NCBI GenBank assembly: GCA_964615365.1 | Contig: CAZTOU010000016.1 | Span: 28,277 to 92,276 of the forward strand | From: an uncultured Spirochaetales bacterium | Lineage (GTDB): Bacteria > Myxococcota_A > UBA9160 > UBA6930 | Length of the DNA stretch: 64,000 bases | Reading direction: 5' to 3' | Shown: positions 3,804-41,710 of the stretch, piece by piece | Position numbering within the stretch: the first letter of the stretch is position 1 | Layout of the letters: the number at the start of each line of letters is the position of its first letter | Notes under the pieces: generated by a model | Told to the model about the DNA's origin: nothing | Seen by the model: only the letters and a program-made list of their open reading frames with translations | The model's database searches: none | Translations under genes and position numbers: made by a program

Positions 3804-3804
3804 G

Positions 3805-7106: not shown

Positions 7107-7621
7107 AGCGGCGGGTCGCCTACCAGGGGCGCTCCATCACGGTCTGCGTCGAGGAGGCGGAGCTGCCCAACGGGCGCCGCGTGGATCTCGACGTGGTGCG
7201 CCACCCCGGAGCGGCCGCGGTGGTGCCCTTCGAGACCGATCGGGTGGTCCTCTTGATCCGCCAGTTCCGGCACGCGGCGGGGGGCACGATCTGGGAGGTC
7301 CCGGCCGGCAAGCTCGACGGCGACCCCCCCGAGGTCTGCGCAGCCAAAGAGCTCGAGGAGGAGGCGGGGCGGCGGGCCGGTCGACTCGAGCGGCTCGGCT
7401 CGATCTATACCACCCCGGGATTCACCGACGAGGTGATCCACCTCTTCGCCGCCTTCGACCTGGAGCCGATCCCACAGCGCCTCGAGGCCGACGAGGTGAT
7501 CGAGGTGGTGCCCACGCCGATCGAGGAGGCGCTCGAGATGATCTGGCGGGGAGAGCTCCGCGACGGCAAGAGCGCCATCGCCCTGATCCATGCGGCTCGG
7601 CGGATCGGGCTTCTCCGTTGA
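7103..7621 (+). CDS. NUDIX hydrolase (ADP-ribose pyrophosphatase-like)
   Basis: Nudix box 'GKLDGDPPEVCAAKELEEEAG'. ATG 7103 overlaps the nth stop as ATGA. Confidence 0.85.
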   Translation: MKRRVAYQGRSITVCVEEAELPNGRRVDLDVVRHPGAAAVVPFETDRVVLLIRQFRHAAGGTIWEVPAGKLDGDPPEVCAAKELEEEAGRRAGRLERLGSIYTTPGFTDEVIHLFAAFDLEPIPQRLEADEVIEVVPTPIEEALEMIWRGELRDGKSAIALIHAARRIGLLR

Positions 7622-8550: not shown

Positions 8551-8728
8551 AACTACGCTCTTCGGGTTAGCGGGATCCCGCGCCCGTCCCGCCAACCCAC
8601 ATTGCTGGAGGCGACGCCGAGGACAGTTGTTGGGCACCCGGTGTCGCCCGAGCGAGTCCGGACGATCGACCAGAGACTGATTCGCACTCGGGGTCGTCGT
8701 AACTGGCTCAGCGTGGGAGGAGGCGAGT

Positions 8729-9493
8729 TTGCACGGACGGGGCTACCAGACGGTCAGGTTCGGACCGCCCGTCACTCCCAGCATCATCAAGTACCTGCTG
8801 ATCGCGAATCTCGCGGTCTTCGTGGCCCAAACGCTCTTTCCGACTCTCTGGGTGCTGGGAGCCGCCACCCCCTACCTGTTCTGGCAGCAGGGGTTCCTCT
8901 GGCAGCCTTTCACCTACATGTGGCTTCACGCGCCAGTCAACGGCGGCGGCTTCATGCACATCGGCTTCAACATGCTGGCGTTGTGGATGTTCGGCTCCCC
9001 TATTGCCCTGCTTTGGGGTGAGAAGAAGTTCCTCCGCTTCTACCTGCTCTGCGGCCTGGGCGCCGGCTTCATCATCGTGGCGTGGCCCGCGTTGCTCGCG
9101 CTCTTCGGCGCGACGCCATCCGCCTACCAGATTCCAACGGTGGGCGCCTCGGGAGCCGTCTTCGGAGTGCTGCTCGCCTACTCGCTCACCTGGCCGGACC
9201 GCACCATCATGCTCCTCTTCCCCCCCATTCCCATCAAGGCGATCTACTTCATTCCGTTCATCCTGGTGCTGGGCTGGCTCAGCGGTGGCAACATCAGCCA
9301 CACGGGTCACCTCGGCGGCGTTCTGGCCGGATGGCTGTTGCTGCGCCGGATGGGAACCACGGGGGGACTCACCTTCAAGTCGCTCCAGTACCGCTGGCGG
9401 CGTTACAAGATGCGCAGAAACCTCCGCTCCGTCCGCATGGAGGAGCTCCGCTCGCGGCAACGGCACGACGATGATCAAGGGCCCTACCACTAG
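8729..9493 (+). CDS. Rhomboid-family intramembrane serine protease (GlpG-like)
   Basis: 254-aa polytopic ORF with 'HIGFNMLALWMFG', catalytic 'GASGAVFG' and 'HTGHLGGVLAG'. TTG start with GGGAGGAGG 5 nt upstream. Confidence 0.85.
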   Translation: MHGRGYQTVRFGPPVTPSIIKYLLIANLAVFVAQTLFPTLWVLGAATPYLFWQQGFLWQPFTYMWLHAPVNGGGFMHIGFNMLALWMFGSPIALLWGEKKFLRFYLLCGLGAGFIIVAWPALLALFGATPSAYQIPTVGASGAVFGVLLAYSLTWPDRTIMLLFPPIPIKAIYFIPFILVLGWLSGGNISHTGHLGGVLAGWLLLRRMGTTGGLTFKSLQYRWRRYKMRRNLRSVRMEELRSRQRHDDDQGPYH

Positions 9494-9556
9494 GAGGGCC
9501 TAGAGGAAGTCCATGCAGGAAGGCAGCTGCACACTCGTGACGGGGAAGACGACCTC

Positions 9557-10444
9557 TTGAGGCGCCATTCCGCGGAAAGAGACTGCAACGGTGGTCGCGG
9601 GGGCATCGGAAGATTCCTCGAGACCCTGTTCGCTGGAATCCCCTGGAGCGAGCGCGCCGAGCAGACCGAGACGATTGAGCTTCCCCGCCCTCCCGGGGGG
9701 AACCTCCGCATCGACAACGCCAACGGCCGCACTCGCATCGTCGGCGAAGAACGGAGCGACATCGAGATCCAGCTCAGCAAGGCCGCTCGAGCGGAGTCCG
9801 AGGAGCAGGCGCAGGAGCTGCTCCGCGCGATCCGCGTGGTGTCCACCGAGGACGCCGCCGGAGACATGACTCTCGACGTCGAGATCCCCGGCCGCTGGAA
9901 CCGGCGCGGACGCGTCGACATGGAGCTGCACATCCCCCGCGAGCTCAAGGTCGAGGTGACCGCCGCCAATGGGAAGATCTGCGTGCAAGGTCTCCGGGGC
10001 GGGGTCCGTGCCCGTTCCAGTAACGGTGCGGTGCGCATCGAGGACGTGGTCGGCGACGTGGAGATCCACACCTCCAACGCCAAGGTCGCGACGATCTGCA
10101 CCTGCGGCCACGTGGCGGCCCGCTCCAGCAACGGAAAGATCGAGCTCGAGAATCATCGCGGCTCGGTCGATGCAGCCACCTCGAACGGGACCATCCACTG
10201 CGAGCTCGAGGACCTCGGGAAATCCGGGGTCGTCCTGTCGACCAGCAACGGACGCATCATCCTCGATCTCCCCGAAGACGCCGACGGCGACGTCGACGTC
10301 CGCGTGGACAACGGACTGATCCGCAACGCCAGGGAGCTCGACCCCCCCTCCCGAGAACGCAGCGGACGGATGAAGGGGACGCTCGGGCGCGGAGGCATTC
10401 CGATCCGGCTCCGCGCGTCCAACGGCACCATCTCGATTCGTTGA
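9557..10444 (+). CDS. DUF4097-like beta-strand repeat protein (putative adhesin fold)
   Basis: Repeated 'xxSNGxIxxE' strands ('SSNGAVRIED', 'SSNGKIELEN', 'TSNGTIHCEL', 'TSNGRIILDL', 'ASNGTISIR'). TTG start and no obvious signal peptide. Confidence 0.6.
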   Translation: MRRHSAERDCNGGRGGIGRFLETLFAGIPWSERAEQTETIELPRPPGGNLRIDNANGRTRIVGEERSDIEIQLSKAARAESEEQAQELLRAIRVVSTEDAAGDMTLDVEIPGRWNRRGRVDMELHIPRELKVEVTAANGKICVQGLRGGVRARSSNGAVRIEDVVGDVEIHTSNAKVATICTCGHVAARSSNGKIELENHRGSVDAATSNGTIHCELEDLGKSGVVLSTSNGRIILDLPEDADGDVDVRVDNGLIRNARELDPPSRERSGRMKGTLGRGGIPIRLRASNGTISIR

Positions 10445-13643: not shown

Positions 13644-14486
13644 TTGGTAGAGCCCTCGAACACAGTGATCGGCGTGGATGCGGGCGCGACGCTGGTGAAG
13701 ATCGCGACGCGATCCCCGGAGGGGACACTCAGCTACGAGCTGGCGCCGGCGATGGCGCTCTCGGAGGTGGTGGAGACGATCGAGGCCGCGGGACCCGAGA
13801 GGGTGGGTCTCACCGGAGGCGGCGCGTCGAAGCTCGAGCAGCAGCTCGGCCTTCCGACGCTACGCGTCAATGAGTTCGCCGCCTGGGGCAACGGCGCCGC
13901 CGAGCTGCTCGAGGGTCTCGCGCTGGGCTTCGCGAGGCGATACCTGCTGGTTTCGCTGGGGACGGGAACCTCGGTGATGCTGGTGGACGGCATGGCGGTG
14001 AATCGGATCGGCGGAACCGCCCTGGGAGGCGGAACGGTGGTGGGACTCGGCGCAGCCTTGCTGGATCGCTCCGACTTCTCCGAGATCGCGGCCCTGGCCG
14101 AGAACGGCGATCGGAGAAGGGTGGATCTGCTGGTCTCGGACATCTACCGACCCGGGGAGATCCCCCTGCTCGGAGATCTGACCGCAGCGAGCTTCGGCAA
14201 GCTGGCGCGACTGGACGGTGAGCGCGAAAAGGCGGCACCCGAGGATCTCGCCCACGCGGTGATGGGACTGGTGGGAGAGAACGTGGCCTTGATCTGCGCG
14301 GGTCTGGGAGCCGCCCACCAGGTCGACCGGGTGGTGTTCGGAGGCTCGACGCTGCGGAAGAACCGCACGCTTCGGGAGGTGCTGAAGCTGATCACCTCCG
14401 CACTGGGTCCCGAGGCGGTCTTCCTCCCGGACGGCGAGTTCGCGGGCGCGCTCGGCGCTCTCCGTCTGGCCTGCGACCGGAGCTAG
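13644..14486 (+). CDS. Type II pantothenate kinase-like (fumble/ASKHA-fold) protein
   Basis: 'VIGVDAGATLVKIA' phosphate-1 motif, 'VSLGTGTS' and 'RIGGTALGGGT'. TTG 13644 is preceded by GGAAAGAG. Track ORF start 13593 would lie 2 nt from the divergent exeA start. Confidence 0.55.
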   Translation: MVEPSNTVIGVDAGATLVKIATRSPEGTLSYELAPAMALSEVVETIEAAGPERVGLTGGGASKLEQQLGLPTLRVNEFAAWGNGAAELLEGLALGFARRYLLVSLGTGTSVMLVDGMAVNRIGGTALGGGTVVGLGAALLDRSDFSEIAALAENGDRRRVDLLVSDIYRPGEIPLLGDLTAASFGKLARLDGEREKAAPEDLAHAVMGLVGENVALICAGLGAAHQVDRVVFGGSTLRKNRTLREVLKLITSALGPEAVFLPDGEFAGALGALRLACDRS

Positions 14487-14496
14487 CCACGGGGGC

Positions 14497-15744
14497 TCAG
14501 GTCTTGGGGACCGGCTCGGTCGGCTCCTCGTTGCTGCGCGAGAGATCACGCAGCACCCGCTGAGTTCGCGCGATGGCGGCGCGCTGCACGCGCAGCTCCT
14601 CGGTCTGGGCCGCCACCTGCCGCGAGAGACGGTCGCTCACATCGACCACCTCCTCCAGGCGTTGCTCCAAGCGGGAGAACCGCTCTTCGGCCTCCGGGCT
14701 CGCGCCGGAACCCGGAGAGGGCTCGACGGCTGGCGGGGCTTCCGGAGCCTCTTCCGGAGCCGTCACCGGCGATTCGCCCTGCGCCTCCTCCGACGGCTCG
14801 GTCGCCTCCTCCGGCTCATCGAAGAGCGAGGCCTCCCCGACGACCTCACCCTCCGCGGCCGCGTCGCCCACCTCCTCCTCATCGGGCTGCGCTGCGGCCT
14901 CGGACTGCTCGTCGACGGAGAAGGGCTCCCCCGCGGCGAAGGGCGTGATCGGCTCCTCCGCCCCCGCAGCGCCTCGGTGGCGCATGATGACGAAGGCGAG
15001 AACGAAGGCGAGGACCAGGGCGAGCACGGCGCCGAGAACGAGCGGCTGGTTGAGCGGAGCGGGCAGCCCGTCCAGAGTGCCCTTCTCCGCCGCCGGAGAC
15101 GGAGGGACGGCGACGCGCGCCGGCGGCCTCGCGCGCTGCGGCGGTGTGGGCGCCGGCGTCCTCACCTCTTCCTCGACGTCCACCACCGCTCCCGGATCCG
15201 GCTCCGGGACAGCGGTGGGGGCGGCTGCTTCCACCCCTCCCGCATCGGTCTCCTCGGCGGCGGGCGCCGCCGGTTCGGGGGTCGCTTCCGCCGCGGGCTC
15301 GGGGCTCGGAGCCGGCGGAGCGGGGGCCTCCGGCGTCGCCGCGGTCTCGGGCGCCGCACGCAGGTCCAGAACCACGCGATCCGGCTCGCGGAGGACGAGC
15401 TTCTTCACCTCCACCGGACCACGTAGGGCGATGTGAATCCGGCTGGAGCCGGCATCGGCGGACTTCACCCGCACCCACCGGAGGTGCGCGCTCCTCGCCG
15501 AAGCGACCATCTTCTCGCCACTTCCGGCGGCGAGGCGAAGAACCAGCTCCTCGCTTCCGGAAGACTCGATCTCGCAGGAAACTGCGGCGTCGCTCTCCAG
15601 GACGACGCGGGTGTACTCGTCGTGCACTCCGATCCGCACGTCGACCAGGTTCGCAGCGCTCCCTGGAAGAGCCGCGAGAAACACGACTGCGGCTCCGAGA
15701 ATGAAGAAAAGCCCTCTCGATTTCTGCACGGTGGACTGGCTCAC
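14497..15744 (-). CDS. AMIN-domain bitopic membrane protein with Pro/Ala/Glu-rich regions and a C-terminal coiled coil
   Basis: GTG 15744 overlaps the upstream stop as GTGA. Signal/anchor 'GLFFILGAAVVFLAALPG'. AMIN-like 'VDVRIGVHDEYTRVVLE...VVLDL'. A central TM helix 'LVLGAVLALVLAFVLAFVIM' is followed by an acidic tail. Confidence 0.6.
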   Translation of the reverse strand: MSQSTVQKSRGLFFILGAAVVFLAALPGSAANLVDVRIGVHDEYTRVVLESDAAVSCEIESSGSEELVLRLAAGSGEKMVASARSAHLRWVRVKSADAGSSRIHIALRGPVEVKKLVLREPDRVVLDLRAAPETAATPEAPAPPAPSPEPAAEATPEPAAPAAEETDAGGVEAAAPTAVPEPDPGAVVDVEEEVRTPAPTPPQRARPPARVAVPPSPAAEKGTLDGLPAPLNQPLVLGAVLALVLAFVLAFVIMRHRGAAGAEEPITPFAAGEPFSVDEQSEAAAQPDEEEVGDAAAEGEVVGEASLFDEPEEATEPSEEAQGESPVTAPEEAPEAPPAVEPSPGSGASPEAEERFSRLEQRLEEVVDVSDRLSRQVAAQTEELRVQRAAIARTQRVLRDLSRSNEEPTEPVPKT

Positions 15745-16538
15745 CGGCGCACCCCCCTGTCCTGCCCGCCAGCGGCCGCTCCCGCGAACAGTCCGCAGAG
15801 AGTTTCGATGGCCTGCAGGATGCGCGGACCGTACCACGACACGAGCGTACCGTCGATCAGATGGATCTCGCCGGTGTGGGCTGCGGGGATGTCGAGCGCG
15901 CCAAGCTCCTGAGCATCCCTCTGTCCGAAGGCATACGGCTCGTCGGGCAGCAGGACGAGCTCCGGCCGGGCTGCTTCGATCTCCGCCTGCGTCACGCGCG
16001 GATAGCGCCGCTGGCTCACACCGGCGAAGACGTTCTCTCCACCGCATAGTGTGAGGAGATCGTGAGCGTAGGTGTCGTCGCCGACGACCATCCACGGATC
16101 CCGCCAGATCGGGCAGGTGACCCGAACCCGTCGCTCGGAACGCTCTCCCTCGGCCCGCTCGAGCGCGGCCGAGGCCGGATCCACCACCGCGCGCCGGCTC
16201 TCCTCGGATGCGCCCAGGTCGGCCAGCGCGCCCAGCAGCGCGACCGCATCGCGAACCGTTCGCGGGTGGGTCACCCACACCGGGATCCCGGCGGACTCCA
16301 GGCGCTCCACGTCGCGACGCCGGTTCTCTTCGCGGTTGGCGATGACCAGATCCGGGCGCAGCGCGATGATGGAGGGGACGTCGGGGTTCTTGGTGCCCCC
16401 GATCTTCGGGAGAGGAGCCACTCCCTCGGCGGGATGCACGCACCACTCCGTCACCCCGACCACCCGCTCGCCCAGTCCCAGCGCAAAGAGCGCCTCGGTC
16501 AAGCTCGGAACCAGCGAGACGATCCGCTGCGGCGTCAC
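15741..16538 (-). CDS. BtuF/TroA-like (Peripla_BP_2 class) binding protein without a signal peptide
   Basis: 'RIVSLVPSLTEALFALGLGERVVGVT' and 'RPDLVIAN' are typical of cobalamin/siderophore-binding proteins. GTG 16538 overlaps the ArsA-like stop as GTGA. The rest of track ORF 15741..18482 is an Arg-rich shadow over the ATPase genes. Confidence 0.75.
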   Translation of the reverse strand: MTPQRIVSLVPSLTEALFALGLGERVVGVTEWCVHPAEGVAPLPKIGGTKNPDVPSIIALRPDLVIANREENRRRDVERLESAGIPVWVTHPRTVRDAVALLGALADLGASEESRRAVVDPASAALERAEGERSERRVRVTCPIWRDPWMVVGDDTYAHDLLTLCGGENVFAGVSQRRYPRVTQAEIEAARPELVLLPDEPYAFGQRDAQELGALDIPAAHTGEIHLIDGTLVSWYGPRILQAIETLCGLFAGAAAGGQDRGVRR

Positions 16539-17692
16539 CCGAAGTCGACCTCCAGCACGCCTTCGCGCAGCCGCGCCCGGCGAATCGGGAGACCCCGGAC
16601 GGAGGCGGGGAGGGCGATCCACCGCGAGGCGTTCCGCACCTGCACGACGAGATCCGAGCCCCGAGTGACCACCTCGATCTCCTCCTTCGAGACGCCGGGG
16701 AGATCGACCTCGAGGCGGGTGCGTCCCGCATGCTTCCGCAGGCGGATCGGCCGGCCGTGCGTGAACACGGCGGCGGGATCGCGATCCCCGAAGACGTCCC
16801 GGGCCAGACGGGAGAGATCCTCGATGCCGCACAGCTCGTGGGGATAGAGGGGCGCCCGGAACTGCGGGATGGGAAAGGAGGCTTCGATCGAATCCAGCTC
16901 GCCGCGTTCGCGCTCGGCCCAGCGCGCCAGAAAGCCGCCGGCGGCCTCCTCCGGGAGCAGCCGGTTGACCACCACTGCATCGGTCGCGACGCCGTAGAGA
17001 CTCAGATAGGCGAAGGAGCGACGCGTCTCCTCCACCACCACGCGGGCCGGATTCACCACCAGCCGCGCCGTGGTCCGATCGCCGTCCAGGAGGATATGAC
17101 GCACGTCCTCCACGTCGGAGTAGAGTCGCTCGATGGCCTCGAAGAACTCGTCCCGGGGAATCACGCCGGTGGCGTGAATCCGCTCCACCAGGGGGCGCAG
17201 CAGTCGAGCACCCCGACGCTCCAGGTCGAAGAAGTTCTCCATGAAGATGCGCAGGGCGTCCGGAAAGCGGAGCATGCGCAGCGTCGCGCCGGTGGGTGCG
17301 CAGTCGACCACGCAGACGTCGAAGTCGCCGGTCTCTTCGACCTCTCGAATCGCCCGCAGGGCCACCAGCTCCTCGAGGCCCGGAAACACCAGGAGCTCCT
17401 CGGCGAGGACCTCGTCGGTCTCGTCCCGCAAGAGCTCCCGGAGCCAGCGCTGGATCTCCGCCCAGGAGCGATCCAGCTCGTCGAGGACGGCCACCTCCCG
17501 GGCCACCACGCCCTCGGTGAGGGACATGGGACGCGCTCCGACCCGCTGCCCCAGCGCGTCGCCCAGGCTGTGCGCGGGATCCGCCGAGAGCAGGAAGACG
17601 CGGTGGCCGTGGGCGGCCGCACCCAGGGCCGTCGCGATGGCGTGGCTGGTCTTGCCGACACCCCCCTTCCCGGTCAGGAGAATGACCCGCAC
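16535..17692 (-). CDS. ArsA/Get3-family ATPase with C-terminal HSP20-like domain (paralog 2)
   Basis: 'RVILLTGKGGVGKTS' deviant Walker A, 'SADPAHSL' and 'VVDCAPTG'. C-terminal beta-sandwich-like 'DLVVQVRN...GVLEVDF'. The GTG start immediately follows the upstream TAG. Confidence 0.85.
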   Translation of the reverse strand: MRVILLTGKGGVGKTSHAIATALGAAAHGHRVFLLSADPAHSLGDALGQRVGARPMSLTEGVVAREVAVLDELDRSWAEIQRWLRELLRDETDEVLAEELLVFPGLEELVALRAIREVEETGDFDVCVVDCAPTGATLRMLRFPDALRIFMENFFDLERRGARLLRPLVERIHATGVIPRDEFFEAIERLYSDVEDVRHILLDGDRTTARLVVNPARVVVEETRRSFAYLSLYGVATDAVVVNRLLPEEAAGGFLARWAERERGELDSIEASFPIPQFRAPLYPHELCGIEDLSRLARDVFGDRDPAAVFTHGRPIRLRKHAGRTRLEVDLPGVSKEEIEVVTRGSDLVVQVRNASRWIALPASVRGLPIRRARLREGVLEVDFG

Positions 17693-18874
<1,182 letters not shown>

Positions 18875-18887
18875 TGCCGAGACTTTA

Positions 18888-19091
18888 TCATGCCGCGGAG
18901 CTCTCCGACGCGAGCAGGACACCGACTGGCGCCATCCAGATCGGGGGGCGCTCGGTCCAGCGGTGATCGCAGCGCGGGCACTCGGCCAGCAGCACCACCC
19001 CTCGATCCACCACCTCGTCCGTCCGGATCTCGGTGAAGCCGCACACCAGGCAGCGCGTCGTGGTTCGAATCGCGGGCCTCATCTCGTCCAT
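18888..19091 (-). CDS. Small zinc-ribbon protein (CxxC...CxxC), first gene of the ArsA-like operon
   Basis: 67 aa: 'MDEMRPAIRTTTRCLVCGF...LLAECPRCDHRW'. GGAGGG lies 6 nt upstream of ATG 19091. It is the 3' part of track ORF 18888..19364. Confidence 0.5.
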   Translation of the reverse strand: MDEMRPAIRTTTRCLVCGFTEIRTDEVVDRGVVLLAECPRCDHRWTERPPIWMAPVGVLLASESSAA

Positions 19092-29201: not shown

Positions 29202-30230
29202 ATGCAGAAGGGACTGATCCTGACCACCGGCATGGCTCGAGGCGACGTGGATCTGGCGGTGCGCGCCGAGGCGGCGGGCTTCGATTCCGTCTTCACCATC
29301 GAGTTCTTCAATCGGCACGGCTACGTACCCCTGGGCGCCATCGCACAGGCGACCCGGCGCATCCGCTTCGGGACGGGGATCGCCAATGCCTTTACCCGCA
29401 GCCCTCTCCTCCACGCCAGCGCGGCGATGGATCTCGACGAGCTCTCCGGGGGGCGGATGATTCTCGGGCTGGGAAGCGCCACGAGGCGCATGAACCAGAA
29501 CTGGTTCGGCGTCCCCTTCTCGGAGCCGGCCGCCCGCATGCGGGAGCTGGTCACGCTGCTTCGCCAGGCAATCGCCGCGCAGAGCGGCCTCGGCTTTCGC
29601 TTCGAGGGCCGCTTCTGGAACTTGAGCGTCCCGATCTACTCGCGGCCCGGTGCCGCGCGAACCGAAATTCCGATCTGGGTCGCCGCCGTCAACCGGGGCA
29701 TGATCGCCGCGGCGGGCGCCGTCGCCGACGCCCTGGTCGGCCACCCGATCGCGACCCGGCGCTGGCATCGCGAGGTCACCCTCCCCGGCCTGCGAAGCGC
29801 GGAGGAGAAAGCGGGCCGGGAATCCGGCGCCTGCAAGCTCGCGCCCTACGTTCTGACCTCCATCTCCGACGATCGCGATCAGGCCGTGCGCGACGCGAAG
29901 GGGCAGATCGGCTTCTACCTCACCACCGAGCTCTACCACTCGATACTCGACCTCCACGGGTTGCGCGAGGTCGGCCAGGCCTGCCGAGCGGCGCTTAGAA
30001 GCTTCGACCTCGCCGCCATGGCCGACGCCATCCCGGACCCGCTCGTCGAGGAGATCGCCATCGCCTGCACCCCGGACGAAGCGCGCGACCGCCTCGCCCA
30101 ATGGAACGATCTCACCGAGGAGCCCCTCTTCTACGCTCCCACCGTCGGGGTCGAGCCGGAACGGGTGGCCGCGAACCTCGACGCGATCCTGGATCTATTC
30201 GGCAGCCGCTCGGACGCGCCTTCGCCATAG
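29202..30230 (+). CDS. LLM-class F420/flavin-dependent oxidoreductase
   Basis: 'AEAAGFDSVFTIEFF', 'RIRFGTGIANAFTRSP' and 'RMILGLGSA' are typical of luciferase-like monooxygenases. In-frame ATGs at 29193 and 29202. A TAGAAT hexamer at 29189-29194. Confidence 0.8.
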   Translation: MQKGLILTTGMARGDVDLAVRAEAAGFDSVFTIEFFNRHGYVPLGAIAQATRRIRFGTGIANAFTRSPLLHASAAMDLDELSGGRMILGLGSATRRMNQNWFGVPFSEPAARMRELVTLLRQAIAAQSGLGFRFEGRFWNLSVPIYSRPGAARTEIPIWVAAVNRGMIAAAGAVADALVGHPIATRRWHREVTLPGLRSAEEKAGRESGACKLAPYVLTSISDDRDQAVRDAKGQIGFYLTTELYHSILDLHGLREVGQACRAALRSFDLAAMADAIPDPLVEEIAIACTPDEARDRLAQWNDLTEEPLFYAPTVGVEPERVAANLDAILDLFGSRSDAPSP

Positions 30231-30968
30231 CCACATCAGCGGCGGCAGGACGAACAGCAGCTCGGAGCTCAGGCCGCAGCCGTAGAAAGCCCCCTCCTGG
30301 TTCTTCCAGGGCTGTCCGACGCACTGCGGGTCCGGGTTCGCCACGCCGTCTCCGTCGGGATCGCTGACGTTGGCGGGGCAACCTCCGGGCTCGCCCGTGC
30401 AGATTCCCCAGATCGACTGTCCGCCGTCGAAGTCGATCAGCCCCGGATCCGGATCCGATCCCGGATCGTTGTTGATCCCGTCCTGGCACTCGGGCGCCTC
30501 GAGGGGCGCAAGGTGGTCGCCGCATCCGGGATCGTCCGGGTAGTCGACCCAGCCGTCGGAGTCGTTGTCGAGGCGGTCGTCGCACGGGTACGCCGGGTAC
30601 TCCGGCCCGAACTGGAGGATTTGCAGGCCGGCGGATCCCCGGGCGACGTAGGCGAGCTCCCCGACCACCTCGACACCCCTGCCCCAGTCCGCGGGGATGA
30701 ACCCGATCTCGACCGGAGCTGCGGGGTTCGAGAGGTCGATGATCCGAACGCCACTGGGGTTTGTGTGGACGACGTAGGCGAGCCCGCCGGCGATCTCGAC
30801 GTCCAAGACGAAGCCCGGCGTGTCGAGGGCTCCGACGTTGATCAGCGCTGCGGCGCGCTCACCTGCGACGAGCCAGAAGACGATCGCCAGGGCAACGAGG
30901 AGGATTCCCGCGGTCTGAACCCTGTTCACCAGGAGTGTGTCAAGGTGTCGCGAACCGAGCGGAGTCAT
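30195..30968 (-). CDS. Secreted LVIVD-repeat / TSP3-like Asp-rich protein with a C-terminal GCGL-TM-RRR tail
   Basis: 257-aa ORF with a signal anchor. LVIVD-like 'GGLAYVVHTNPSGVRIIDLSNPAAP' and 'GELAYVARGSAGLQILQF'. Ca-binding-like 'DNDSDGWVDYPDD' and 'DPDGDGVANPD'. The tail is 'YGCGLSSELLFVLPPLMWLWRRRVRAAAE*'. GGAGGTG upstream of the ATG. Confidence 0.7.
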   Translation of the reverse strand: MTPLGSRHLDTLLVNRVQTAGILLVALAIVFWLVAGERAAALINVGALDTPGFVLDVEIAGGLAYVVHTNPSGVRIIDLSNPAAPVEIGFIPADWGRGVEVVGELAYVARGSAGLQILQFGPEYPAYPCDDRLDNDSDGWVDYPDDPGCGDHLAPLEAPECQDGINNDPGSDPDPGLIDFDGGQSIWGICTGEPGGCPANVSDPDGDGVANPDPQCVGQPWKNQEGAFYGCGLSSELLFVLPPLMWLWRRRVRAAAE

Positions 30969-35363: not shown

Positions 35364-35858
35364 ATGAGCCGTCGATACAGCGGTCCGCCGCTGACCACCG
35401 AGCAGGTGCTGGAGCGATACAGCTCGGGCCCCAAGAGCGGGTTGTTCACCGACGGCTCCTGTGAGGGGAACCCGGGCCCCGGCGGCTGGGGCTTCGTCTG
35501 GGTCGAGAACGACGAGATCGTGCAGGAGCGGTGCGGCAGCGATGCCGACACCACCAACAATCGCATGGAGCTCACCGCCCTGATCGAGGCGCTCCGCGTC
35601 CTTCCCGAGGACGCCGAGATCACCGTCTACTCGGACAGCCAGCTCTGCGTGAAGACGGTGAACGAGTGGGCAGCGGGCTGGGAGAAGCGCGGCTGGAAGC
35701 GCAAGAGCGGACCGATCGCCAACCTGGAGCGGGTGAAGCGGTTCTACGAGCTGGCCCGAGCCCATCCGCGGGTTCGCATCGAGTGGATCAGGGCCCACGA
35801 CGGCTCGCGCTGGAACGAGTACGCGGACGCCCTGGCGTCCCGTCATCTAATCGGGTAG
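35364..35858 (+). CDS. rnhA: Ribonuclease HI
   Basis: 164-aa ORF with 'TDGSCEGNPGPGGWGF', 'TNNRMELTALIEAL', 'VYSDSQ' and 'NEYADALA'. Confidence 0.9.
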   Translation: MSRRYSGPPLTTEQVLERYSSGPKSGLFTDGSCEGNPGPGGWGFVWVENDEIVQERCGSDADTTNNRMELTALIEALRVLPEDAEITVYSDSQLCVKTVNEWAAGWEKRGWKRKSGPIANLERVKRFYELARAHPRVRIEWIRAHDGSRWNEYADALASRHLIG

Positions 35859-36722
35859 CGAGGCCGGCTCCTCCGGGATGGCGCAGCTCACCGGGAGGTC
35901 GGCGAGCGCCGCAGCGAAGAGCTCTCGGTTCTTTTCGCCCAGATCGTCGCGCAGCAGCACCTCGCAAACCTCTCCCGAGGCGATACGCTGCACGTCGACC
36001 GCGACCGCCCAGAGGAAGAGCGCCGCCAGACCGGCGGCGACCCACCGCATCCAGCGCGGAGAGGGGCCCAGGGGAATCGGCCCCGCACCGCGGGAGACGA
36101 GGGCCATCGCGGCCATTCCACCGGCGAAGCCGCCGAAGTGCGCAGACCAGGCGATTTTGAAGGGGAGCACGACAGCCAGGAGTGCATCCCCGACCAGAGC
36201 GATGGGGATGACCCACCTTACCCGGCGCAGCAGGGGCGTCAGGGACCTCTTCTGTCGCAGCACCAGTGTCCCCCAAGCCCCGAGCATTCCGAAGATCGCC
36301 CCGGAGGCTCCCACCACCACAGTTCCTCCCGGCGGCACGGCGACGGTGGCGAGCGAGCCGGCGAGCATCGAGAGAGCGATGACCAGCAGTGTCCTCAGGC
36401 TCCCGACCTGTGCCTCCAGCGCTGCACCCAATCCCAGCAAGCCCGCCAGATTCATCGTGAAGTGGATATCGTCCGCGTGCAGGAGAGGGGCGGTGAAGAT
36501 GCGGAAGACCTCCCCCTCCCGTACCAACTCCGGGTCGAGGCCACCGACCAGGTACGCCGAGTGGCCGGTGCCGTCCTCGGTGAGCGCGTTCGCCCACCAA
36601 AGGGCCGCGAAGACCAGCGAGAGCAGTGCGGCGAAGCTGAGGGTCGTGGTAGCGCCATGGTACTGAACACCGTCGGGGCCCGTCGTCCAGAAGCTCGGGC
36701 GGAGCCGGTCACCTTCGCTCAT
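35847..36722 (-). CDS. Rhomboid-family intramembrane serine protease, translationally coupled to the RHS gene
   Basis: 291 aa from ATG 36722, which overlaps the RHS stop as ATGA. 'RIFTAPLLHADDIHFTMNL', catalytic 'GASGAIFG' and 'HFGGFAGG'. There is an extra C-terminal TM helix and a tail. Confidence 0.8.
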   Translation of the reverse strand: MSEGDRLRPSFWTTGPDGVQYHGATTTLSFAALLSLVFAALWWANALTEDGTGHSAYLVGGLDPELVREGEVFRIFTAPLLHADDIHFTMNLAGLLGLGAALEAQVGSLRTLLVIALSMLAGSLATVAVPPGGTVVVGASGAIFGMLGAWGTLVLRQKRSLTPLLRRVRWVIPIALVGDALLAVVLPFKIAWSAHFGGFAGGMAAMALVSRGAGPIPLGPSPRWMRWVAAGLAALFLWAVAVDVQRIASGEVCEVLLRDDLGEKNRELFAAALADLPVSCAIPEEPASLPD

Positions 36723-39700
36723 CGGTGTCGCCTCCACCGGCGCGCGGCCCATCTGCGGATCAGCAGAGGGGCGAGCAGAAGCTGCGCCGCAATCAAGAAC
36801 CAGTGCAGATGTCCGAGGCCTGGGACCGAGGCGAGCCGCACCGGCGAGCAGCTCCCCGAGCTGGAGGACGTGGGTACGCTGGGGATGGATGCGAGGGCGG
36901 TTGAGCTGTCCGAGGTGAGTGCGCGACCCAGCGTCAAGGAGAAGCCGAGACCTGTCACCCCGAAGGCTGCCGCTGCCACCGCGGCGGCCAACGCCGTGGT
37001 GACGAAGAAGAGAGCGATGGCCGCCAAGATCAGGCCGAGGGCGGCGGCGCCCACCGCCACGACGGCCTCGGCATTTCGCCCATCCGGATCCGCGAACCAC
37101 ACAGGATTGCCCAGCGCATAGGCGTACTGGTTGACGTACTGGAGCACCGGATCCGGGGACAGGAAGCGGCCCACGGCGGGATCGTAGACCCTCGCGCCCA
37201 GAACCATCAACTCGCCGATCTGGGTGCGGCCCGCGAAGCGCACGAAGTCGTCGTCGGTGCCGATCACCTGGCGCAGCCCGTAGGCATCGTACTCGTAGTG
37301 GCTGTGGACCTCGCCGTCCTGGTCGCTCACGAACTTGACGTTGCCGCGGAAGTCCAGGTGGCGGTAGCGACGCTCGCCCGTGGCGAACTCCACGCGAACC
37401 TCTCCGAGATCGATCGCGCTGGGAATGCCCGCCGGGTCCGCCTGCACCCGCCCGCCGAAGAGCCAGCGGCTCTCCACCTCCATCACCACGGAGCGCACCC
37501 TGCGGTCCAGCGCGTCCCACTCGAAGAGGACGTCGCTCCCATAGGAGGCCAGCCGACCGGATGCGGTCCAGGTGAGGGGGACCCCCCGGCGCGAGGTGGC
37601 GAATCCCGCCTCGTCGTAGCTGTAGTCGATGGTTCCCGCCGCGAGAGTCGTCGCCGAGAGCAGGCGATTGCTCTCCGCGTTGTAGGTGAAGCTCTCGCCG
37701 AGGGCGGTCGACCCCAGGCCGTTGCTGAGCGCGTCGTACTCGTATGCACTGTGCAGGGTCTCACCGATCCAGAAGTAGACGCGCTGGCCGGCCACCGGCT
37801 CCTGGCCCGGCGTCCCGAATCCGGGTCCCAGCATGTACTCCTCGCTGGTGGTGGCGGCGACAGCTCCGAAGGTCGTGGTGAGGGCGGTGGCATGTAGCCC
37901 CGGCGCGAACGCCATCGGCCCCTCCCATGTGATCTCGGTCTCCTCCACCACCCCACCGGGACCCTCGGTCGTGGAGCCTTCCAGCTGGCCGTTCGACGGG
38001 TCGTAGCGGTAGAGCCGCACCAGACCGTTTCCATGGCTCGTCAGGGCGAGCTTCCCGTCCTGGTAGACGTGCTGGACCAGGAGGTGACCGTTGTCCGAGA
38101 GGCTCACCCGCCGATCGGCGAGATCGTATCCGTGATCGAACCAGCGGAGGAGCAAGTCGCTCGCCAGGACCTCGCGGGTCGTTCGGGAGCGCAGGTCGTG
38201 GGTCAGCAGCAGGATCTCTCCGTCCGGATACTCGACCTGTACGACTCGGTCCGCAGTGTCGTACGAGTAGAGCTCGACCCCACCGCGTACCGAGTCTTCG
38301 AGGCTTCGAAGCCGTCCCTCTGCGTAGCCCATGACCGCCGCGGACTCGATTGCGCCGTCGCGGAGATTGCGGATCGACACGACCCGACCCACCGCGTCGT
38401 AGTCGGCCTCCCGCCGCATCCCGTTGGCCAGCTCGGTCGCGGTGACACGCCCGGCGGCGTCGTACTCGAGGGTCGTCGAAGCCCAGGCGCCGTCCACCCT
38501 CTCGCGGATCCGTGCCAGGCGGCCCAGGGAGTCGTAGTCGAACTCGTCATCGCCTCCACCGGGACGCGCGATCCGCGTGCGCAGGCCGTCGCTGCGGTGT
38601 TCGATCTCGATGTACTGATCGGGATGCCGCGGGATGCCCCCGTAGGCCGCATCCGCCACCCGGATGCGACGGAGATTGCGGTCCTCGTCGTATTCGCGGG
38701 AGACGACCCCACCGAGCTCGGGAGTCACGCCGTGGATGCCCCGGAGCAGGTTGCCCACCAGATCGTACTCGTTCTCGATCTCGAGTTCGTCGGTGGTCAG
38801 CAGGGTCGGGTGACCGTGGGCGCCGTGGCCGTCGTACTCGACCACTCCGTTCGCGGTGGTGAAGGAGGCGACGGTCTGGTCGGACGCGTAGCTGTAGCTC
38901 GCCACGACCTCTCCCTCACCGTTCTCCACCGCCACCAGTCGGCCGGATCCGTCGTAGCTGCGCCGCTCTCGCAGGCCGATGCTGTCGACGATCTCGAGCG
39001 GGGCTCGCTCCAGGAGGGCCTCGCGATTCACCGCGGCGGCGGCATAGCTGAAGCTGACCACGTTGCCGGATGGCTGGATCTCGATGGCGACGTCGTCGTC
39101 TTGATGGCTCCAGCGGGTCGTCGCGCCACTCGGCTGGGTCTCCTCGCCGACCCGGAGTCCGTCCCAGGAGAGGTACAGCGCCTCCTCCACGTCCGTCGAT
39201 TCCCGCTCGCGGAGACGGCGCTCCCCGTCGTAGCGAAACCAGGTCACGTGGCCGAGCGGATCGATGTGCCGGGTCGCGAAGAGCCCGGCCTCGTTCTTGA
39301 CGTAGTAGTCGAACCGGTGGACCGGATGCTCCTCTCCGATCGCCCGTACCTCTCGTACGCGACGACCCCCGTAGAGGTACTCGACGCGCTCTCCCTCCGA
39401 GCTGACGATCGCACTGAGGTCGATCCCCGAGTACTCGTATCGGGTGCCCGGCCATCCGCGTGCGGTGTCGAGCCCGTCGCGAATCCCCGTCAGGCGATCG
39501 GCCGAGTAGAGGATCTCCGCGACTCGGCCGGCGCGATCGCTGATCGAGGCGACCTGCCCGTCCGGTCCATAGGAAATCTCGAAGACCGGCTCGCAGTCCC
39601 CGGAACCCATGCACTGATCGATCGCGACGGTTCGCGGCGCTCCCGCCACGATCCCTTGCAGGTAGGAGAGGCGCGGATAATCCGCGCTCGCGTAATGGAC

Positions 39701-40165
39701 GGCGCTGAGTCGGGAATCCGGGGCGAAATCGTAGGCGAGCCCTCCCTTGGTCTTTACGGTGTCGGCGTCGACGACCACCCAGACGGTTCCGGGAATCGCG
39801 TCTCCGTGCGCGAGGGCCCTGGTGTCATGGGAGGCGCCGGTCGGATCGACGAAGAGGGCCCCGTCGTAGCGGACGTCGAAGCTCCAGAGCCACCCCCGGG
39901 AGGCGGAGTTGTAGGCGGCACCGATCTCGCGGGTTCCGAGATGCGTGTCGATGCTGAGAACCGAACGTCGGACCAGCAGGTTTCCACCCAGGGGATTGAC
40001 GACTGCACCGGGAACCTCCAGCACGGCGCGCTCCTGGTACTGGGGCAAGCCGGCCGCCGGCGCCAGCTTCTTGGCCCTCGGCGGACAGCCCAGCGCCGCG
40101 ATCAAGGCGATCGACAGCACGGCGATCGCGCGATTCATCGGACTTGCGGAGTGCGGATTCCTCAT
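36719..40165 (-). CDS. RHS/YD-repeat protein with signal/lipobox-like N-terminus and an atypical hydrophobic, Cys-containing C-terminal tip
   Basis: 1148-aa ORF. N-terminus 'AIAVLSIALIAALGC'. Many YD repeats ('YDAAGRVTATE', 'YDAVGRVVSI', 'YDSLGRLARI'). The RHS core ends 'GRFLSPDP...GNPVWFADPDGR'. The 118-aa tip contains TM segments, an 'SSSSGSCSP' stretch and 'WFLIAAQLLLAPLLIRRWAARRWRRHR*'. GGAGAGGG upstream of ATG 40165. Confidence 0.9.
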   Translation of the reverse strand: MRNPHSASPMNRAIAVLSIALIAALGCPPRAKKLAPAAGLPQYQERAVLEVPGAVVNPLGGNLLVRRSVLSIDTHLGTREIGAAYNSASRGWLWSFDVRYDGALFVDPTGASHDTRALAHGDAIPGTVWVVVDADTVKTKGGLAYDFAPDSRLSAVHYASADYPRLSYLQGIVAGAPRTVAIDQCMGSGDCEPVFEISYGPDGQVASISDRAGRVAEILYSADRLTGIRDGLDTARGWPGTRYEYSGIDLSAIVSSEGERVEYLYGGRRVREVRAIGEEHPVHRFDYYVKNEAGLFATRHIDPLGHVTWFRYDGERRLRERESTDVEEALYLSWDGLRVGEETQPSGATTRWSHQDDDVAIEIQPSGNVVSFSYAAAAVNREALLERAPLEIVDSIGLRERRSYDGSGRLVAVENGEGEVVASYSYASDQTVASFTTANGVVEYDGHGAHGHPTLLTTDELEIENEYDLVGNLLRGIHGVTPELGGVVSREYDEDRNLRRIRVADAAYGGIPRHPDQYIEIEHRSDGLRTRIARPGGGDDEFDYDSLGRLARIRERVDGAWASTTLEYDAAGRVTATELANGMRREADYDAVGRVVSIRNLRDGAIESAAVMGYAEGRLRSLEDSVRGGVELYSYDTADRVVQVEYPDGEILLLTHDLRSRTTREVLASDLLLRWFDHGYDLADRRVSLSDNGHLLVQHVYQDGKLALTSHGNGLVRLYRYDPSNGQLEGSTTEGPGGVVEETEITWEGPMAFAPGLHATALTTTFGAVAATTSEEYMLGPGFGTPGQEPVAGQRVYFWIGETLHSAYEYDALSNGLGSTALGESFTYNAESNRLLSATTLAAGTIDYSYDEAGFATSRRGVPLTWTASGRLASYGSDVLFEWDALDRRVRSVVMEVESRWLFGGRVQADPAGIPSAIDLGEVRVEFATGERRYRHLDFRGNVKFVSDQDGEVHSHYEYDAYGLRQVIGTDDDFVRFAGRTQIGELMVLGARVYDPAVGRFLSPDPVLQYVNQYAYALGNPVWFADPDGRNAEAVVAVGAAALGLILAAIALFFVTTALAAAVAAAAFGVTGLGFSLTLGRALTSDSSTALASIPSVPTSSSSGSCSPVRLASVPGLGHLHWFLIAAQLLLAPLLIRRWAARRWRRHR

Positions 40166-40237: not shown

Positions 40238-40855
40238 TCACCCATGCAGCGCACCCCCCGCGGATTCCCAGACCGAACGGAGATTCAGCCCCGCGTGCAG
40301 TCCGATGCACGCGGCTACCGTCCGGGAGACGCGGCGAAGGAGCGCCAGCAGCATTCCGACCAGGAAGCTCCCGAGCATCGGCCACGGTGTGAGATGGGTG
40401 ATCGCGAACAGCGCGCTGGTGAGAAGCGCCGCACCGCCCGTTCCCACCGGTGTCGCCGCGATGGCGTCGAAGAGGCGCTCGCGATAGAGCAGCTCCTCGA
40501 AGACCGGCGCGGCCAACACCACCGCGAACAGAAGGGAAAGGCCGGGAGCGGGCGAAGGGGCCAGCAGGCTCGGATCGAGCCCCAGCGCGAGGCCGGCCAG
40601 AGCGATCGCGCCGCAGAGGGAGGGATGGGCGGCGAATCCGAGCGCGCCCGCCAAGCCGAAGAGGACCGCGTGGCGCAGCCGAGGCCGCACCCGGAACGGA
40701 CGGCGCGTCGCGATCAGAAAGGCCGCGGCGAGGCTCATGACCACGAGCACCGCGGGCTCTTCGCCGACCCGCGAAGAGAGCCGGGATCCGCTCACCAGGA
40801 TCGTCCAGACCGCCAGCATCGCCAGAAGCGCGCGGAGCAACGGATCGTTCCTCAT
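40238..40855 (-). CDS. CPBP-family (CAAX/Abi-type) intramembrane glutamic endopeptidase
   Basis: Motifs 'EELLYR' (EExxxR), 'FAITH' (FxxxH) and 'HAGLN' (HxxxN) in a polytopic ORF. ATG 40855 overlaps the upstream stop as ATGA; the track ORF starts at 40870. Confidence 0.8.
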   Translation of the reverse strand: MRNDPLLRALLAMLAVWTILVSGSRLSSRVGEEPAVLVVMSLAAAFLIATRRPFRVRPRLRHAVLFGLAGALGFAAHPSLCGAIALAGLALGLDPSLLAPSPAPGLSLLFAVVLAAPVFEELLYRERLFDAIAATPVGTGGAALLTSALFAITHLTPWPMLGSFLVGMLLALLRRVSRTVAACIGLHAGLNLRSVWESAGGALHG

Positions 40856-41571
40856 CGCAAACCGACCCATGAGCGGGGGCGGGGGGGCCTAGATGCGGCC
40901 GCGGCCATCGCGGATCCGATCGCGACCCAGCCCATCCCCAGCACCTCCGGCGCGATCAGGGGTTCGCCAAGGGGAGACGGCGCGCGGAATGGCTCGATCG
41001 CCAGACGCATCGCCCCGAAACCATAGAGTGTCGCCGATCCGACCCATGCCCGCGGAAGGCGCCGCGTCCACGCGGCGAGGCCCAGGAGCCCCGCGATCTC
41101 GTAGAGCCGGGTCGGATGGTCTCCAAACCAACCCGCAGCCCCGTGACAGCATCCGGAGGCGATGCAGCCGAGTCGCGCCACCGCGAAGGCGTGGGGCAGG
41201 CTCCCCAGCGCCGCTCCGAGGTACCGCTCCCGCGCGACCCGCCCCCGCGGCAAGAGGGCGATGACCCCCAGAGGCGCGAACAGCACGCTGTGGCCGGCCG
41301 CGGGACGCAGCAGCGCCCGCGGATCCGCCGCCACGTCGTCGAGATGAAGTAGCGCCCAGCCGAGGTGCGCCGCCGCTGCCGCCAGGACCAGGCCGGCGAC
41401 GAAGCGAACCCCGCTCTCCGCCGGCCCTCCCCGGTGGAGGTAGTCGAAGACCGCCATCCAGAACGCGCCGCCGAGTGCGACCATGCGCCCGACCTCGGCC
41501 AGGGGTGGGTGCAGGTGGGCCGCGAACGCTGCGCTCGACGCCAGGGCCCAAAGCACGGTGCGGGCGCCCAT
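40852..41571 (-). CDS. Prolipoprotein diacylglyceryl transferase (Lgt) family protein, Cys-rich loop variant
   Basis: 239-aa polytopic ORF. 'ARLGCIASGCCHG' aligns with Lgt 'GRLGNFINGELWG', 'HPTRLYE' with 'HPSQLYE', and 'YGFGAMRLAIEPFR' with 'YGAFRIIVEFFR'. Confidence 0.7.
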   Translation of the reverse strand: MGARTVLWALASSAAFAAHLHPPLAEVGRMVALGGAFWMAVFDYLHRGGPAESGVRFVAGLVLAAAAAHLGWALLHLDDVAADPRALLRPAAGHSVLFAPLGVIALLPRGRVARERYLGAALGSLPHAFAVARLGCIASGCCHGAAGWFGDHPTRLYEIAGLLGLAAWTRRLPRAWVGSATLYGFGAMRLAIEPFRAPSPLGEPLIAPEVLGMGWVAIGSAMAAAASRPPRPRSWVGLR

Positions 41572-41710
41572 TGTTCCTTCCAGCGCGGGACCGGCGGATC
41601 GACTTCGGCCACTATATGCCGAGACGGGTCCTTGGGAAGACGGTTTGGCCGGCCGACTCCGGACGCCACCGCACGTCGCCGGACGACCGCGTAGGCATTA
41701 GACTGGCTCC

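Follow-up and report, generated by a model that had tools for sequence, protein, structure and literature searches.

What fills the toxin slot of an RHS protein whose C-terminal tip holds no recognisable toxin domain, and why should the gene in the usual immunity-gene position encode a rhomboid protease? The question is raised by a locus in a 64,000-nucleotide stretch of DNA from an uncultured Spirochaetales bacterium (GTDB lineage Myxococcota_A; UBA9160; UBA6930; contig CAZTOU010000016.1), referred to here as the window. Coordinates are positions in the whole window, and the locus lies on its minus strand, where four co-directional genes in a row encode a divergent Lgt-like membrane protein, a CPBP protease, an RHS-shell lipoprotein, and the rhomboid. 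An initial annotation had proposed that the tip is a pore-forming effector and that the rhomboid confers immunity by cleaving its transmembrane (TM) helices. We favour another reading, argued from sequence and held with middling confidence: that the locus is a dedicated maturation system for a single client, the RHS-shell lipoprotein, with the rhomboid as a processing protease. The last 44 residues of this client are probably a Cys-containing sorting or processing signal, which would be handled by the Lgt-like protein, the CPBP protease, and the rhomboid.

Translation gives exactly 118 residues after the core boundary NPVWFADPDGR, which ends at residue 1030 of the RHS protein; a plus-strand reading of 36722–37075 was rejected, as its frame contains a stop and yields nonsense. 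The tip opens with NAE and a 42-residue hydrophobic stretch (AVVAVGAAALGLILAAIALFFVTTALAAAVAAAAFGVTGLGF), followed by a Ser/Thr-rich linker (SSSSGSCSP) that carries the only Cys of the tip (tail residue 76; protein residue 1106). Beyond SCSP come VRLASVPGLGHLH, which includes VPGLGHLH, a 15-residue hydrophobic helix (WFLIAAQLLLAPLLI), and finally RRWAARRWRRHR and the stop codon. The layout described in the initial annotation, including a hairpin of about 40 residues rich in Ala, Gly, and Leu, is thus borne out in every element. So is its statement that the tip is a hydrophobic module without a recognisable toxin domain: Pfam and NCBIfam searches of the tails, covering toxin and glycine-zipper families, returned no match, and a tail profile found nothing in the PDB. 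Weak matches of the tails to holin-X and DUF families were dismissed as TM noise.

The best-conserved part of the tail is its last ~44 residues, SCSPVRLASVPGLGxLHWxLIAAQLLLAPLLIR plus the Arg residues. The tail alignment (A1) holds 35 invariant columns, nearly all within SCSP..LLIR; the hairpin and linker vary. Against the syntenic orthologue at locus L006, the RHS protein as a whole is 72% identical, residues 1051–1100 (from mid-hairpin through the linker) 28%, and the last 48 residues 83%; the corresponding values for other proteins are 89% for Tgt, 84% for PyrF, 71% for the CPBP protease, 70% for the Lgt-like protein, and 60% for the rhomboid. Over the 33 codons of SCSP..LLIR, relatives differ from the window at 8–13 codons synonymously versus 2–5 non-synonymously, which indicates that the constraint acts on the peptide and not on the DNA; judged by its codons, the segment is under purifying selection. 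The tail is in frame in every relative found, and this, together with the codon differences, argues that it is not a chance product of a frame in 69% GC DNA (the GC content of the window is ~69%). A nucleotide-level cause of the 3′-end conservation, such as the ribosome-binding site of the rhomboid gene or dual coding, was rejected: the genes overlap by only 4 nucleotides and synonymous differences are frequent. All relatives possess the Cys, the TM helix, and the Arg cluster, and the Cys is invariant; this is the layout of Cys-containing tripartite sorting signals.

How far this tail travels with its neighbours was followed through the relatives of each gene. A search with the tip across 5.8 billion protein clusters returned three short fragments only, and a metagenome scan found two loci; most of the locus context was therefore obtained through rhomboid and Lgt-like homologues. 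Rhomboid orthologues number ~40 (52%–100% identity), after which similarity drops sharply to generic rhomboids. A scan of genome contigs with the rhomboid found only a 30%-identical Pleurocapsa rhomboid. No close relative was found among 185,579 species-representative genomes, and the lineage is known only from metagenomes and metagenome-assembled genomes (MAGs). Within the window clade, the same four genes stand in the same order in all seven gene tables read, flanked by housekeeping genes: abhydrolase and metallo-beta-lactamase fold genes on one side, and RNase H, tgt, and pyrF on the other. An orthologous rhomboid follows the tip in every close relative with sequence downstream (L002, L003, L005, L006, L007/L008, L009, L010, and two further contigs); L002, L003, and L005 are short contigs in which the rhomboid comes directly after the tail.

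Lgt-like homologues extend to more distant lineages (L011–L014) than rhomboid orthologues do. The RHS proteins of L011, L012, and L013 are full-length orthologues at 38%–47% identity that share the lipobox Cys, the DPxG core end, an Ala/Gly-rich hydrophobic region, and a Gly/Ser/Pro linker; in their tails, C[SA]P is separated by 14–18 residues from a short TM helix, which an Arg cluster follows. RHS, Lgt-like, and CPBP genes occur together in four diverged lineages, and the rhomboid in two of the four; no rhomboid was found within 8 kb of the L012 or L013 tails. In the window clade, L011, and L012, the CPBP gene either adjoins the RHS gene or belongs to its cluster; in L013 it lies ~5 kb away. 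The Lgt-like and CPBP genes are translationally coupled in the window, L006, and L011, and the pair recurs in five lineages, the fifth being L014, without RHS. The conserved core of the system is the RHS protein with this tail plus the Lgt-like and CPBP proteins. NCBI names the Lgt-like protein of L012 as coming from a Myxococcales MAG.

This linkage bears on the plainest alternative, that the three hydrophobic segments of the tip fix the RHS shell permanently in the inner membrane and that the enzymes have general envelope roles and are linked to it only by inherited gene order. The hairpin passes a simple biological-hydrophobicity TM test in the window clade and L011, as an anchor would, and the neighbourhood is one of housekeeping genes; the last hydrophobic stretch, of 15 residues with a Gln and a Pro, fails the test, and the hairpin itself fails in L012 and L013. 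RHS, Lgt-like, and CPBP genes stay together in four lineages despite rearranged gene orders and different flanking genes; the Lgt-like proteins score far short of the models for housekeeping Lgt; another rhomboid, not linked to the locus, is encoded in the window; and the locus has two ATGA translational couplings. A permanent anchor served by general enzymes is thus, of the readings considered here, the one to which we give least credence.

The four genes look like an operon. The TGA of the RHS gene is overlapped by the ATG of the rhomboid gene (ATGA; junction CGATGAGC), and a second ATGA joins the stop of the Lgt-like gene to the probable start of the CPBP gene (Met6, nucleotide 40855). A Shine-Dalgarno-like AGGAGAGGG stands ahead of the RHS start. 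The promoter-like site listed in the table is the sole one in the region, with one found against 0.2 expected in shuffles; as a consensus match only, it is possibly the start of the operon. The two membrane-enzyme genes directly upstream in the same operon, like the lipoprotein signal of the RHS protein, are absent from the initial annotation. The lipobox Cys of that signal is invariant in L006, L007, L009, L011, L012, and L013, and MlaD/MlaE, DsbA, and PBP1 genes elsewhere in the window are consistent with a Gram-negative (diderm) envelope.

The CPBP protein is assigned by Pfam (Rce1-like, 5.1e-16), and its motifs EELLYRER, FAITH, and HAGLN (EExxxR, FxxxH, and HxxxN) are conserved in eight relatives. 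Its best NCBIfam scores, set against the respective cut-offs, are to the sorting proteases MrtJ (36.7/75), MrtS (32.7/130), and Mrt_core (29.2/100). MrtJ is the best or second-best NCBIfam match in all four CPBP proteins scanned (31.8–45.4 bits), and other sorting proteases also appear. Matches of the CPBP protein to hydrolases in the PDB were dismissed as low-complexity noise.

The Lgt-like protein scores 23.8 bits against Pfam LGT (PF01790; gathering threshold 24.9), a precomputed PF01790 match is listed for the identical protein P0050 and for many relatives, and the NCBIfam Lgt equivalogs give 13.7 against a cut-off of 334. A profile of the family has a sole match in the PDB, E. coli Lgt (5AZB; E 5.3e-5). 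We take Y26, H103, R143, N146, E151, G154, Y235, and R239 to be the essential or catalytic residues of E. coli Lgt. Equivalents of R143, R239, and R246 are invariant in the family, and that of G154 is nearly so. At the position of GRLGNFINGELWG in Lgt, the family alignment (A3) shows a triple-Cys motif, ARLGCxxxGCCHG, that is invariant; a Cys-Cys-His cluster placed in what is presumably the active-site cavity is a hint of thioester (acyl-enzyme) chemistry in place of classical diacylglyceryl transfer.

The rhomboid is supported by Pfam (1.4e-28) and by a PDB match to GlpG, and 21 orthologues all keep the Ser140 of its GxSG motif, His195, and H87xxxN91. Among NCBIfam models it scores highest on rhombosortase TIGR03902 (58.7 bits against a cut-off of 84), with the GlpG model at 23. 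An AlphaFold2 model, of moderate confidence (pLDDT 66) and used for the helix count only, has seven long helices, consistent with a 6+1 TM arrangement, followed by a C-terminal domain with two invariant Cys. The window encodes a second rhomboid (8681..9493, plus strand; Pfam 6.6e-27), followed by a DUF4097 'toastrack' protein (9494..10444). The two rhomboids share 27% identity over 113 aligned residues, and the second scores 16.5 bits against the rhombosortase model; the low identity and the difference between 58.7 and 16.5 bits mark the RHS-coupled rhomboid as a specialised paralogue.

Put together, these parts suggest a route. The RHS protein would be exported by Sec, and its C-terminal TM helix would keep the tail inserted in the inner membrane, leaving the N-terminal side in the periplasm and the Arg cluster in the cytoplasm. 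The Lgt-like enzyme would lipidate Cys1106, and the CPBP protease would cut distal to the modified Cys, in the manner of the myxosortases MrtX and MrtJ. The rhomboid, in this clade, would make a further intramembrane cut in one of the tail helices, for which the last conserved TM helix is the best candidate because of its orientation. Bacterial rhomboids are reported to prefer a small P1 residue and hydrophobic P4 and P2′ residues, a preference that cuts between VRLA and SV, and between LIAA and QL, would fit. Such a cut might either remove the remnant TM helix or provide an alternative release route. What results would be the RHS shell, or a C-terminal fragment that autoproteolysis has split from it, tethered by lipid in place of a TM helix; the hairpin, in the least certain part of the scheme, may lie in the membrane or inside the shell as a segment of that mature fragment. 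Gene order, coupling, conservation, and family relationships are observed; we infer which enzyme cuts where, the lipidation of Cys1106, and the fate and role of the hairpin.

Several lines of argument converge on maturation. The Cys/TM/Arg terminus is invariant and the Lgt-like/CPBP pair recurs; single-client adjacency has precedent; the last helix is oriented as a type-I segment, with cytoplasmic Arg residues, a helix-breaking Pro, and small juxtamembrane residues; and, among the relatives and flanks scanned, the tips are non-polymorphic, no orphan copies or delivery machinery were found, and the locus is syntenic and apparently vertically inherited.

The precedent lies in tripartite, Cys-containing C-terminal signals (MYXO-, JDVT-, Synerg-, and CGP-CTERM), each paired with a CPBP protease (Haft 2023, 10.1101/2023.06.07.544157). 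JDVT-CTERM occurs once per genome and adjoins MrtJ in 16 of 17 cases, and the cut is expected to occur only once an enzyme yet to be identified has modified the Cys (10.1101/2023.06.07.544157). The window locus resembles the JDVT-CTERM/MrtJ system in having one client per genome adjacent to a CPBP protease whose best NCBIfam match is MrtJ, and in a tripartite signal with a single invariant Cys and some conserved positions within its TM helix. It differs in that the JDVT-CTERM model does not match the tail, that the TM helix has HW..Q...AP and not Asp-Pro, that the client always belongs to the same RHS family, and that an Lgt-like protein, a rhomboid, and a hydrophobic hairpin are added.

MrtX cleaves MYXO-CTERM in a Cys-dependent manner, and an 'Lgt-like acyl-transferase' has been proposed for lipidation (Guo, Haft and Wall 2025, PMC11980579). 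The window locus has in common with that system the series of Cys motif, TM helix, and Arg cluster, in which Cys and TM helix stand about as far apart as in TraA; the proposed route of lipidation then CPBP cleavage; and a family partly associated with Myxococcota (L012). In MYXO-CTERM systems, however, one enzyme serves many clients to which it is unlinked; the lipidating enzyme is not known there, whereas the window locus co-encodes a dedicated Lgt paralogue; and the MYXO-CTERM motif is GCGC-like against C[SA]P here. A further tail in the window, that of an LVIVD-repeat protein (30195..30968, minus strand; Pfam LVIVD 2.7e-07), has its own Cys, TM helix, and Arg residues (...YGCGLSSELLFVLPPLMWLWRRRVRAAAE) with a GCG-like motif as in MYXO-CTERM, and no NCBIfam signal model matches it; this tail probably represents another Cys-type sorting signal of the organism, distinct from that of the RHS protein. 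In L012, a 272-aa secreted protein between the CPBP and RHS genes (3215..4033) ends in VRFVPEPRPLLVVAFGASGLVALAWKRIQP, a PEP-CTERM-like signal.

Rhombosortase provides the precedent for the rhomboid, having been reported together with its only client in 16 of 21 single-client genomes, with a tendency to adjacency (Haft and Varghese, PMC3237569). The GlyGly-CTERM/rhombosortase system (PMC3237569; PMC6219818) has, like the window locus, a rhomboid-family enzyme beside a single client and a tripartite C-terminal signal with small residues (here PGLG) just before the TM helix. The RHS-coupled rhomboid differs in its Phe for the Ser+4 His (SGMLH), its extra seventh TM helix, and its C-terminal domain. 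No GlyGly-CTERM signal was matched by NCBIfam models on the client tail, which has only the PGLG motif before the TM helix. In the classical lipoprotein pathway, as in the route proposed here, a thiol-directed lipid transferase (Lgt) acts first, and an intramembrane protease (LspA) then recognises the Cys so modified; at the window locus, by contrast, the signal is C-terminal with inverted topology, the protease is CPBP and/or rhomboid and not LspA, and with Cys at the N146 and E151 positions and GCCHG the chemistry may differ.

The N-terminal side of the tip raises a different possibility. The RHS protein is identified by the TIGR03696 Rhs core (60.2 bits; cut-off 32.5; residues 959–1029), Pfam RHS_repeat (5.9e-23), and YD_repeat_2x (53.8 bits), and its PDB relatives are Rhs cores, Tse15, and TccC2. 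Both Asp residues of the Rhs aspartyl-protease motif are present, with a spacing one residue shorter than DPXGX18-19DPXG (PMC10684867), and both are kept in all RHS relatives, the L010 variant included; the window core thus has a predicted C-terminal autoproteolysis motif. The end of the core does vary: L010 has FTDASGR, in which the Pro of DPxG is lost, P0116 has the canonical DPSGL, and the residue after the core-end Gly is R, T, A, Q, or L across RHS relatives, which raises the question of whether autoproteolysis is retained in every one of them.

Cleavage at this motif has a toxin precedent. In Tse5 of P. aeruginosa (PA2684), also an Rhs protein, the shell encapsulates a pore-forming C-terminal fragment of ~16 kDa, which a DPXGX19DPXG aspartyl protease releases (PMC10684867). 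Tse5, with its immunity protein Tsi5, and the window locus share an Rhs shell, a hydrophobic fragment of ~120–150 aa after the protease motif, and a gene directly downstream (PMC9637101, PMC10684867). Tse5, however, has a PAAR-like N-terminus and is borne by a type VI secretion system (T6SS), has no detectable sequence similarity to the tip, and is not described with a Cys/TM/Arg end or with Lgt-like, CPBP, or rhomboid neighbours; the window protein has a lipoprotein signal, and no PAAR, VgrG, T6SS, two-partner secretion, or LXG genes were found among the scanned window genes or the flanks of its relatives. The pore-forming part of the initial proposal thus finds a precedent in the Tse5 fragment, and the conserved terminus fits a sorting signal instead.

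A mixed scheme would accommodate both. The hairpin would be a membrane-active payload like the Tse5 fragment, freed by Rhs autoproteolysis between DPDGR and N; to mature, it would need its Cys lipidated and the C-terminal TM helix taken off; and the product of the gene following RHS, a membrane protein (the rhomboid in the window), would guard the producing cell by binding stray hairpins or cutting them. The tail does start right after the protease motif with its retained Asp pair, its size (118–184 aa) is within the range of encapsulated Rhs toxins, the Ala/Gly-rich region that fails the TM test in L012 and L013 would suit a packaged peptide better than an anchor, and the hairpin and linker are the most variable part of the protein. 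Across all four lineages, a membrane protein is encoded next after RHS: the window clade and L011 have a rhomboid there, L012 and L013 small 2-TM proteins. The immunity proteins of contact-dependent inhibition (CDI) ionophore toxins are two-helix hairpins of 72–100 aa (PMC11630599). Those CdiI proteins resemble the 108-aa and 144-aa post-RHS proteins of L013 and L012, and the toxins themselves are helical and membrane-inserting at the C-terminus, some with a putative glycine zipper (PMC11630599). The CDI systems, however, use CdiA/CdiB delivery, are strongly polymorphic in toxin and immunity, and are protease-free, and neither such delivery nor such polymorphism was found here.

Against the mixed scheme stand the lack of an evident delivery route, given the lipoprotein signal and the missing T6SS and CDI genes, and the uniformity of the tips. 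One architecture was seen in six full or partial loci, 3+4 fragments, and three distant lineages, and no replacement of the tip by unrelated toxin domains among ~15 relatives; no orphan tips were found in the loci of the relatives; and the RHS locus is single-copy and syntenic among housekeeping genes, apparently inherited vertically. We regard the scheme, with its putative toxicity, as unlikely. A related and less likely idea is that the RHS shell carries a new kind of cargo, a hydrophobic hairpin peptide freed by autoproteolysis, lipidated at its Cys by the Lgt paralogue, and cut from its TM helix by the CPBP protease and the rhomboid; it would then be a lipid-tagged, membrane-active molecule, possibly passed from cell to cell as other Myxococcota lipoproteins are, with the proteases doubling as protection.

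The post-RHS genes also bear on the initial proposal in its full form, in which the whole tip is pore-forming, the rhomboid cuts its TM helices as an immunity mechanism, and the Lgt-like and CPBP genes are incidental or extra immunity. The rhomboid is indeed in the immunity-gene position, its adjacency and translational coupling to the tip are conserved in the clade, pore-forming Rhs tips are known (PMC9637101, PMC10684867), and CPBP/Abi proteins have been suggested to act in bacteriocin self-immunity (10.1101/2023.06.07.544157). The proposal nevertheless leaves the invariant Cys/TM/Arg terminus, for which a pore former has no obvious need, and the Lgt-like gene unexplained; tails of the same architecture occur in L012 and L013 without a rhomboid within 8 kb; the system is non-polymorphic, with no secretion apparatus found; and a search of one literature collection found no paper uniting Rhs, rhomboid, polymorphic toxin, and immunity. 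These points, with the lipoprotein N-terminus, make it very improbable in our judgement that the rhomboid is a proteolytic immunity factor. Since rhomboid genes do follow homologous tips, in the window clade and L011, the immunity idea is disfavoured only.

Comparison of the post-RHS genes suggests that this membrane protein may be a conserved partner fused with, or replaced by, a rhomboid. The 144-aa protein of L012 may be homologous to the N-terminal part of the L011 rhomboid, but the similarity (pairwise E 0.06, without a Pfam match) is no more than suggestive and plays no part in the argument. In L011 alone, a 285-aa polytopic, His-rich membrane protein without a Pfam match (9360..10217) stands between the CPBP and RHS genes.

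The maturation reading has its own difficulties. Its lipidation and cleavage steps are deduced purely by comparison with other systems, and it does not explain why two different intramembrane proteases should be needed. The hairpin begins exactly where Rhs toxins begin, it varies more than any other part of the protein, and the post-RHS 2-TM proteins of L012 and L013 are small, like ionophore immunity proteins. The CPBP protease and the rhomboid score under every curated cut-off, and the His at Ser+4 that is the hallmark of rhombosortases is Phe here (S140-G-A-I-F144), nearly invariantly so in the clade. In the Lgt-like family, the equivalents of N146, E151, and H103 are lost to invariant Cys, Cys, and Leu, respectively, Foldseek with a model of the Lgt-like protein did not recover Lgt, and the enzyme could act on the N-terminal lipobox instead of the tail Cys. 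As for the signal, curated NCBIfam sorting-signal models gave no match to five tails up to E = 10. Apart from P0119, an artefact of a eukaryote-like repeat, all matches to a tail profile among 1.84 billion representatives were C-termini of this one RHS family; with the tail on one protein family only, the usual proof of a sorting signal, its sharing by unrelated proteins, is missing.

The tail or part of it is joined to sequence other than an RHS core on three contigs shorter than 1 kb (L003 1..300, L004 1..133, and protein P0120), L003 having an in-frame stop and a nearby DPLGL. These unreliable cases may be assembly chimeras, rare other carriers, or orphan tail copies.

Features of the RHS locus in the window and gene orders in diverged relatives (positions in the respective sequence)
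Sequence	Feature	Position	Strand	Remarks
Window	Promoter-like site TTCCCA-16-TATAGT	41611..41638	-	Just upstream of Lgt-like gene
Window	Divergent Lgt-like membrane protein	40852..41571	-	239 aa; invariant motif ARLGCxxxGCCHG
Window	CPBP / Rce1-like glutamic intramembrane protease	40238..40870	-	210 aa
Window	RHS/YD-repeat shell lipoprotein	36719..40165	-	1148 aa
Window	N-terminal lipoprotein signal peptide	40085..40165	-	Lipobox LIAALGC, Cys27; read from sequence
Window	Rhs-associated core domain	37079..37291	-	Residues 959-1029; end ...SPDPVL-x17-DPDGR; TIGR03696
Window	118-aa tip of RHS protein	36722..37075	-	Exactly 118 aa after DPDGR
Window	Ala/Gly/Leu-rich hydrophobic hairpin	36941..37066	-	Residues 1034-1075; sequence variable among relatives, hydrophobicity kept
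Window	Conserved C-terminal signal-like module	36722..36853	-	Residues 1105-1148: S-C1106-S-P, VRLASVPGLG, TM, Arg cluster
Window	Last TM helix, W1122-I1136	36758..36802	-	Part of signal-like module
Window	Arg cluster	36722..36757	-	Very C-terminus of RHS protein
Window	Rhomboid intramembrane serine protease	35847..36722	-	291 aa; Ser140, His195
L011	Gene order			Lgt-like / CPBP / unknown membrane protein / RHS / rhomboid (392 aa, extra N-terminal domain)
L011	Post-RHS gene	13830..15008		Rhomboid with N-terminal 2-TM + soluble domain
L012	Gene order			CPBP / unknown / RHS / 144-aa 2-TM protein / Lgt-like; without rhomboid
L012	Post-RHS gene	7570..8004		144-aa 2-TM + soluble-domain protein
L013	Gene order			CPBP + Lgt-like within 5 kb of RHS; 108-aa 2-TM protein after RHS; without rhomboid
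L013	Post-RHS gene	13986..14312		108-aa 2-TM hairpin
L014	Gene order			CPBP + Lgt-like divergent adjacent pair; RHS gene not present on 8.6-kb contig

Elsewhere in the window, two long tandem open reading frames (16535..17692 and 17693..19078) occupy 16535..19078 on the minus strand. The end of the second is similar to the end of a gene at L006 15401..16750, and L007 has ArsA_ATPase and ArsA_HSP20 genes at the position corresponding to 16535..19078.

A Cys-containing C-terminal signal served by a CPBP sorting protease is, as a kind, known already. New here are the sequence of the signal, an RHS shell as its sole client, a hydrophobic hairpin in the Rhs toxin slot, a co-encoded Lgt paralogue with an altered active site, and a second, unrelated intramembrane protease. 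Myxosortase-type sorting lacks its first enzyme, that of lipidation; the locus described here places a divergent Lgt paralogue alongside both an Mrt-like CPBP protease and a single Cys-signal client, a four-gene system in which the lipidation step of Cys-signal sorting becomes testable. Two unrelated intramembrane proteases, one glutamic and one serine, appear to converge on one substrate. The Rhs toxin slot of that substrate holds a conserved hydrophobic hairpin and a probable processing signal, and RHS shells may thus have uses beyond toxin delivery.

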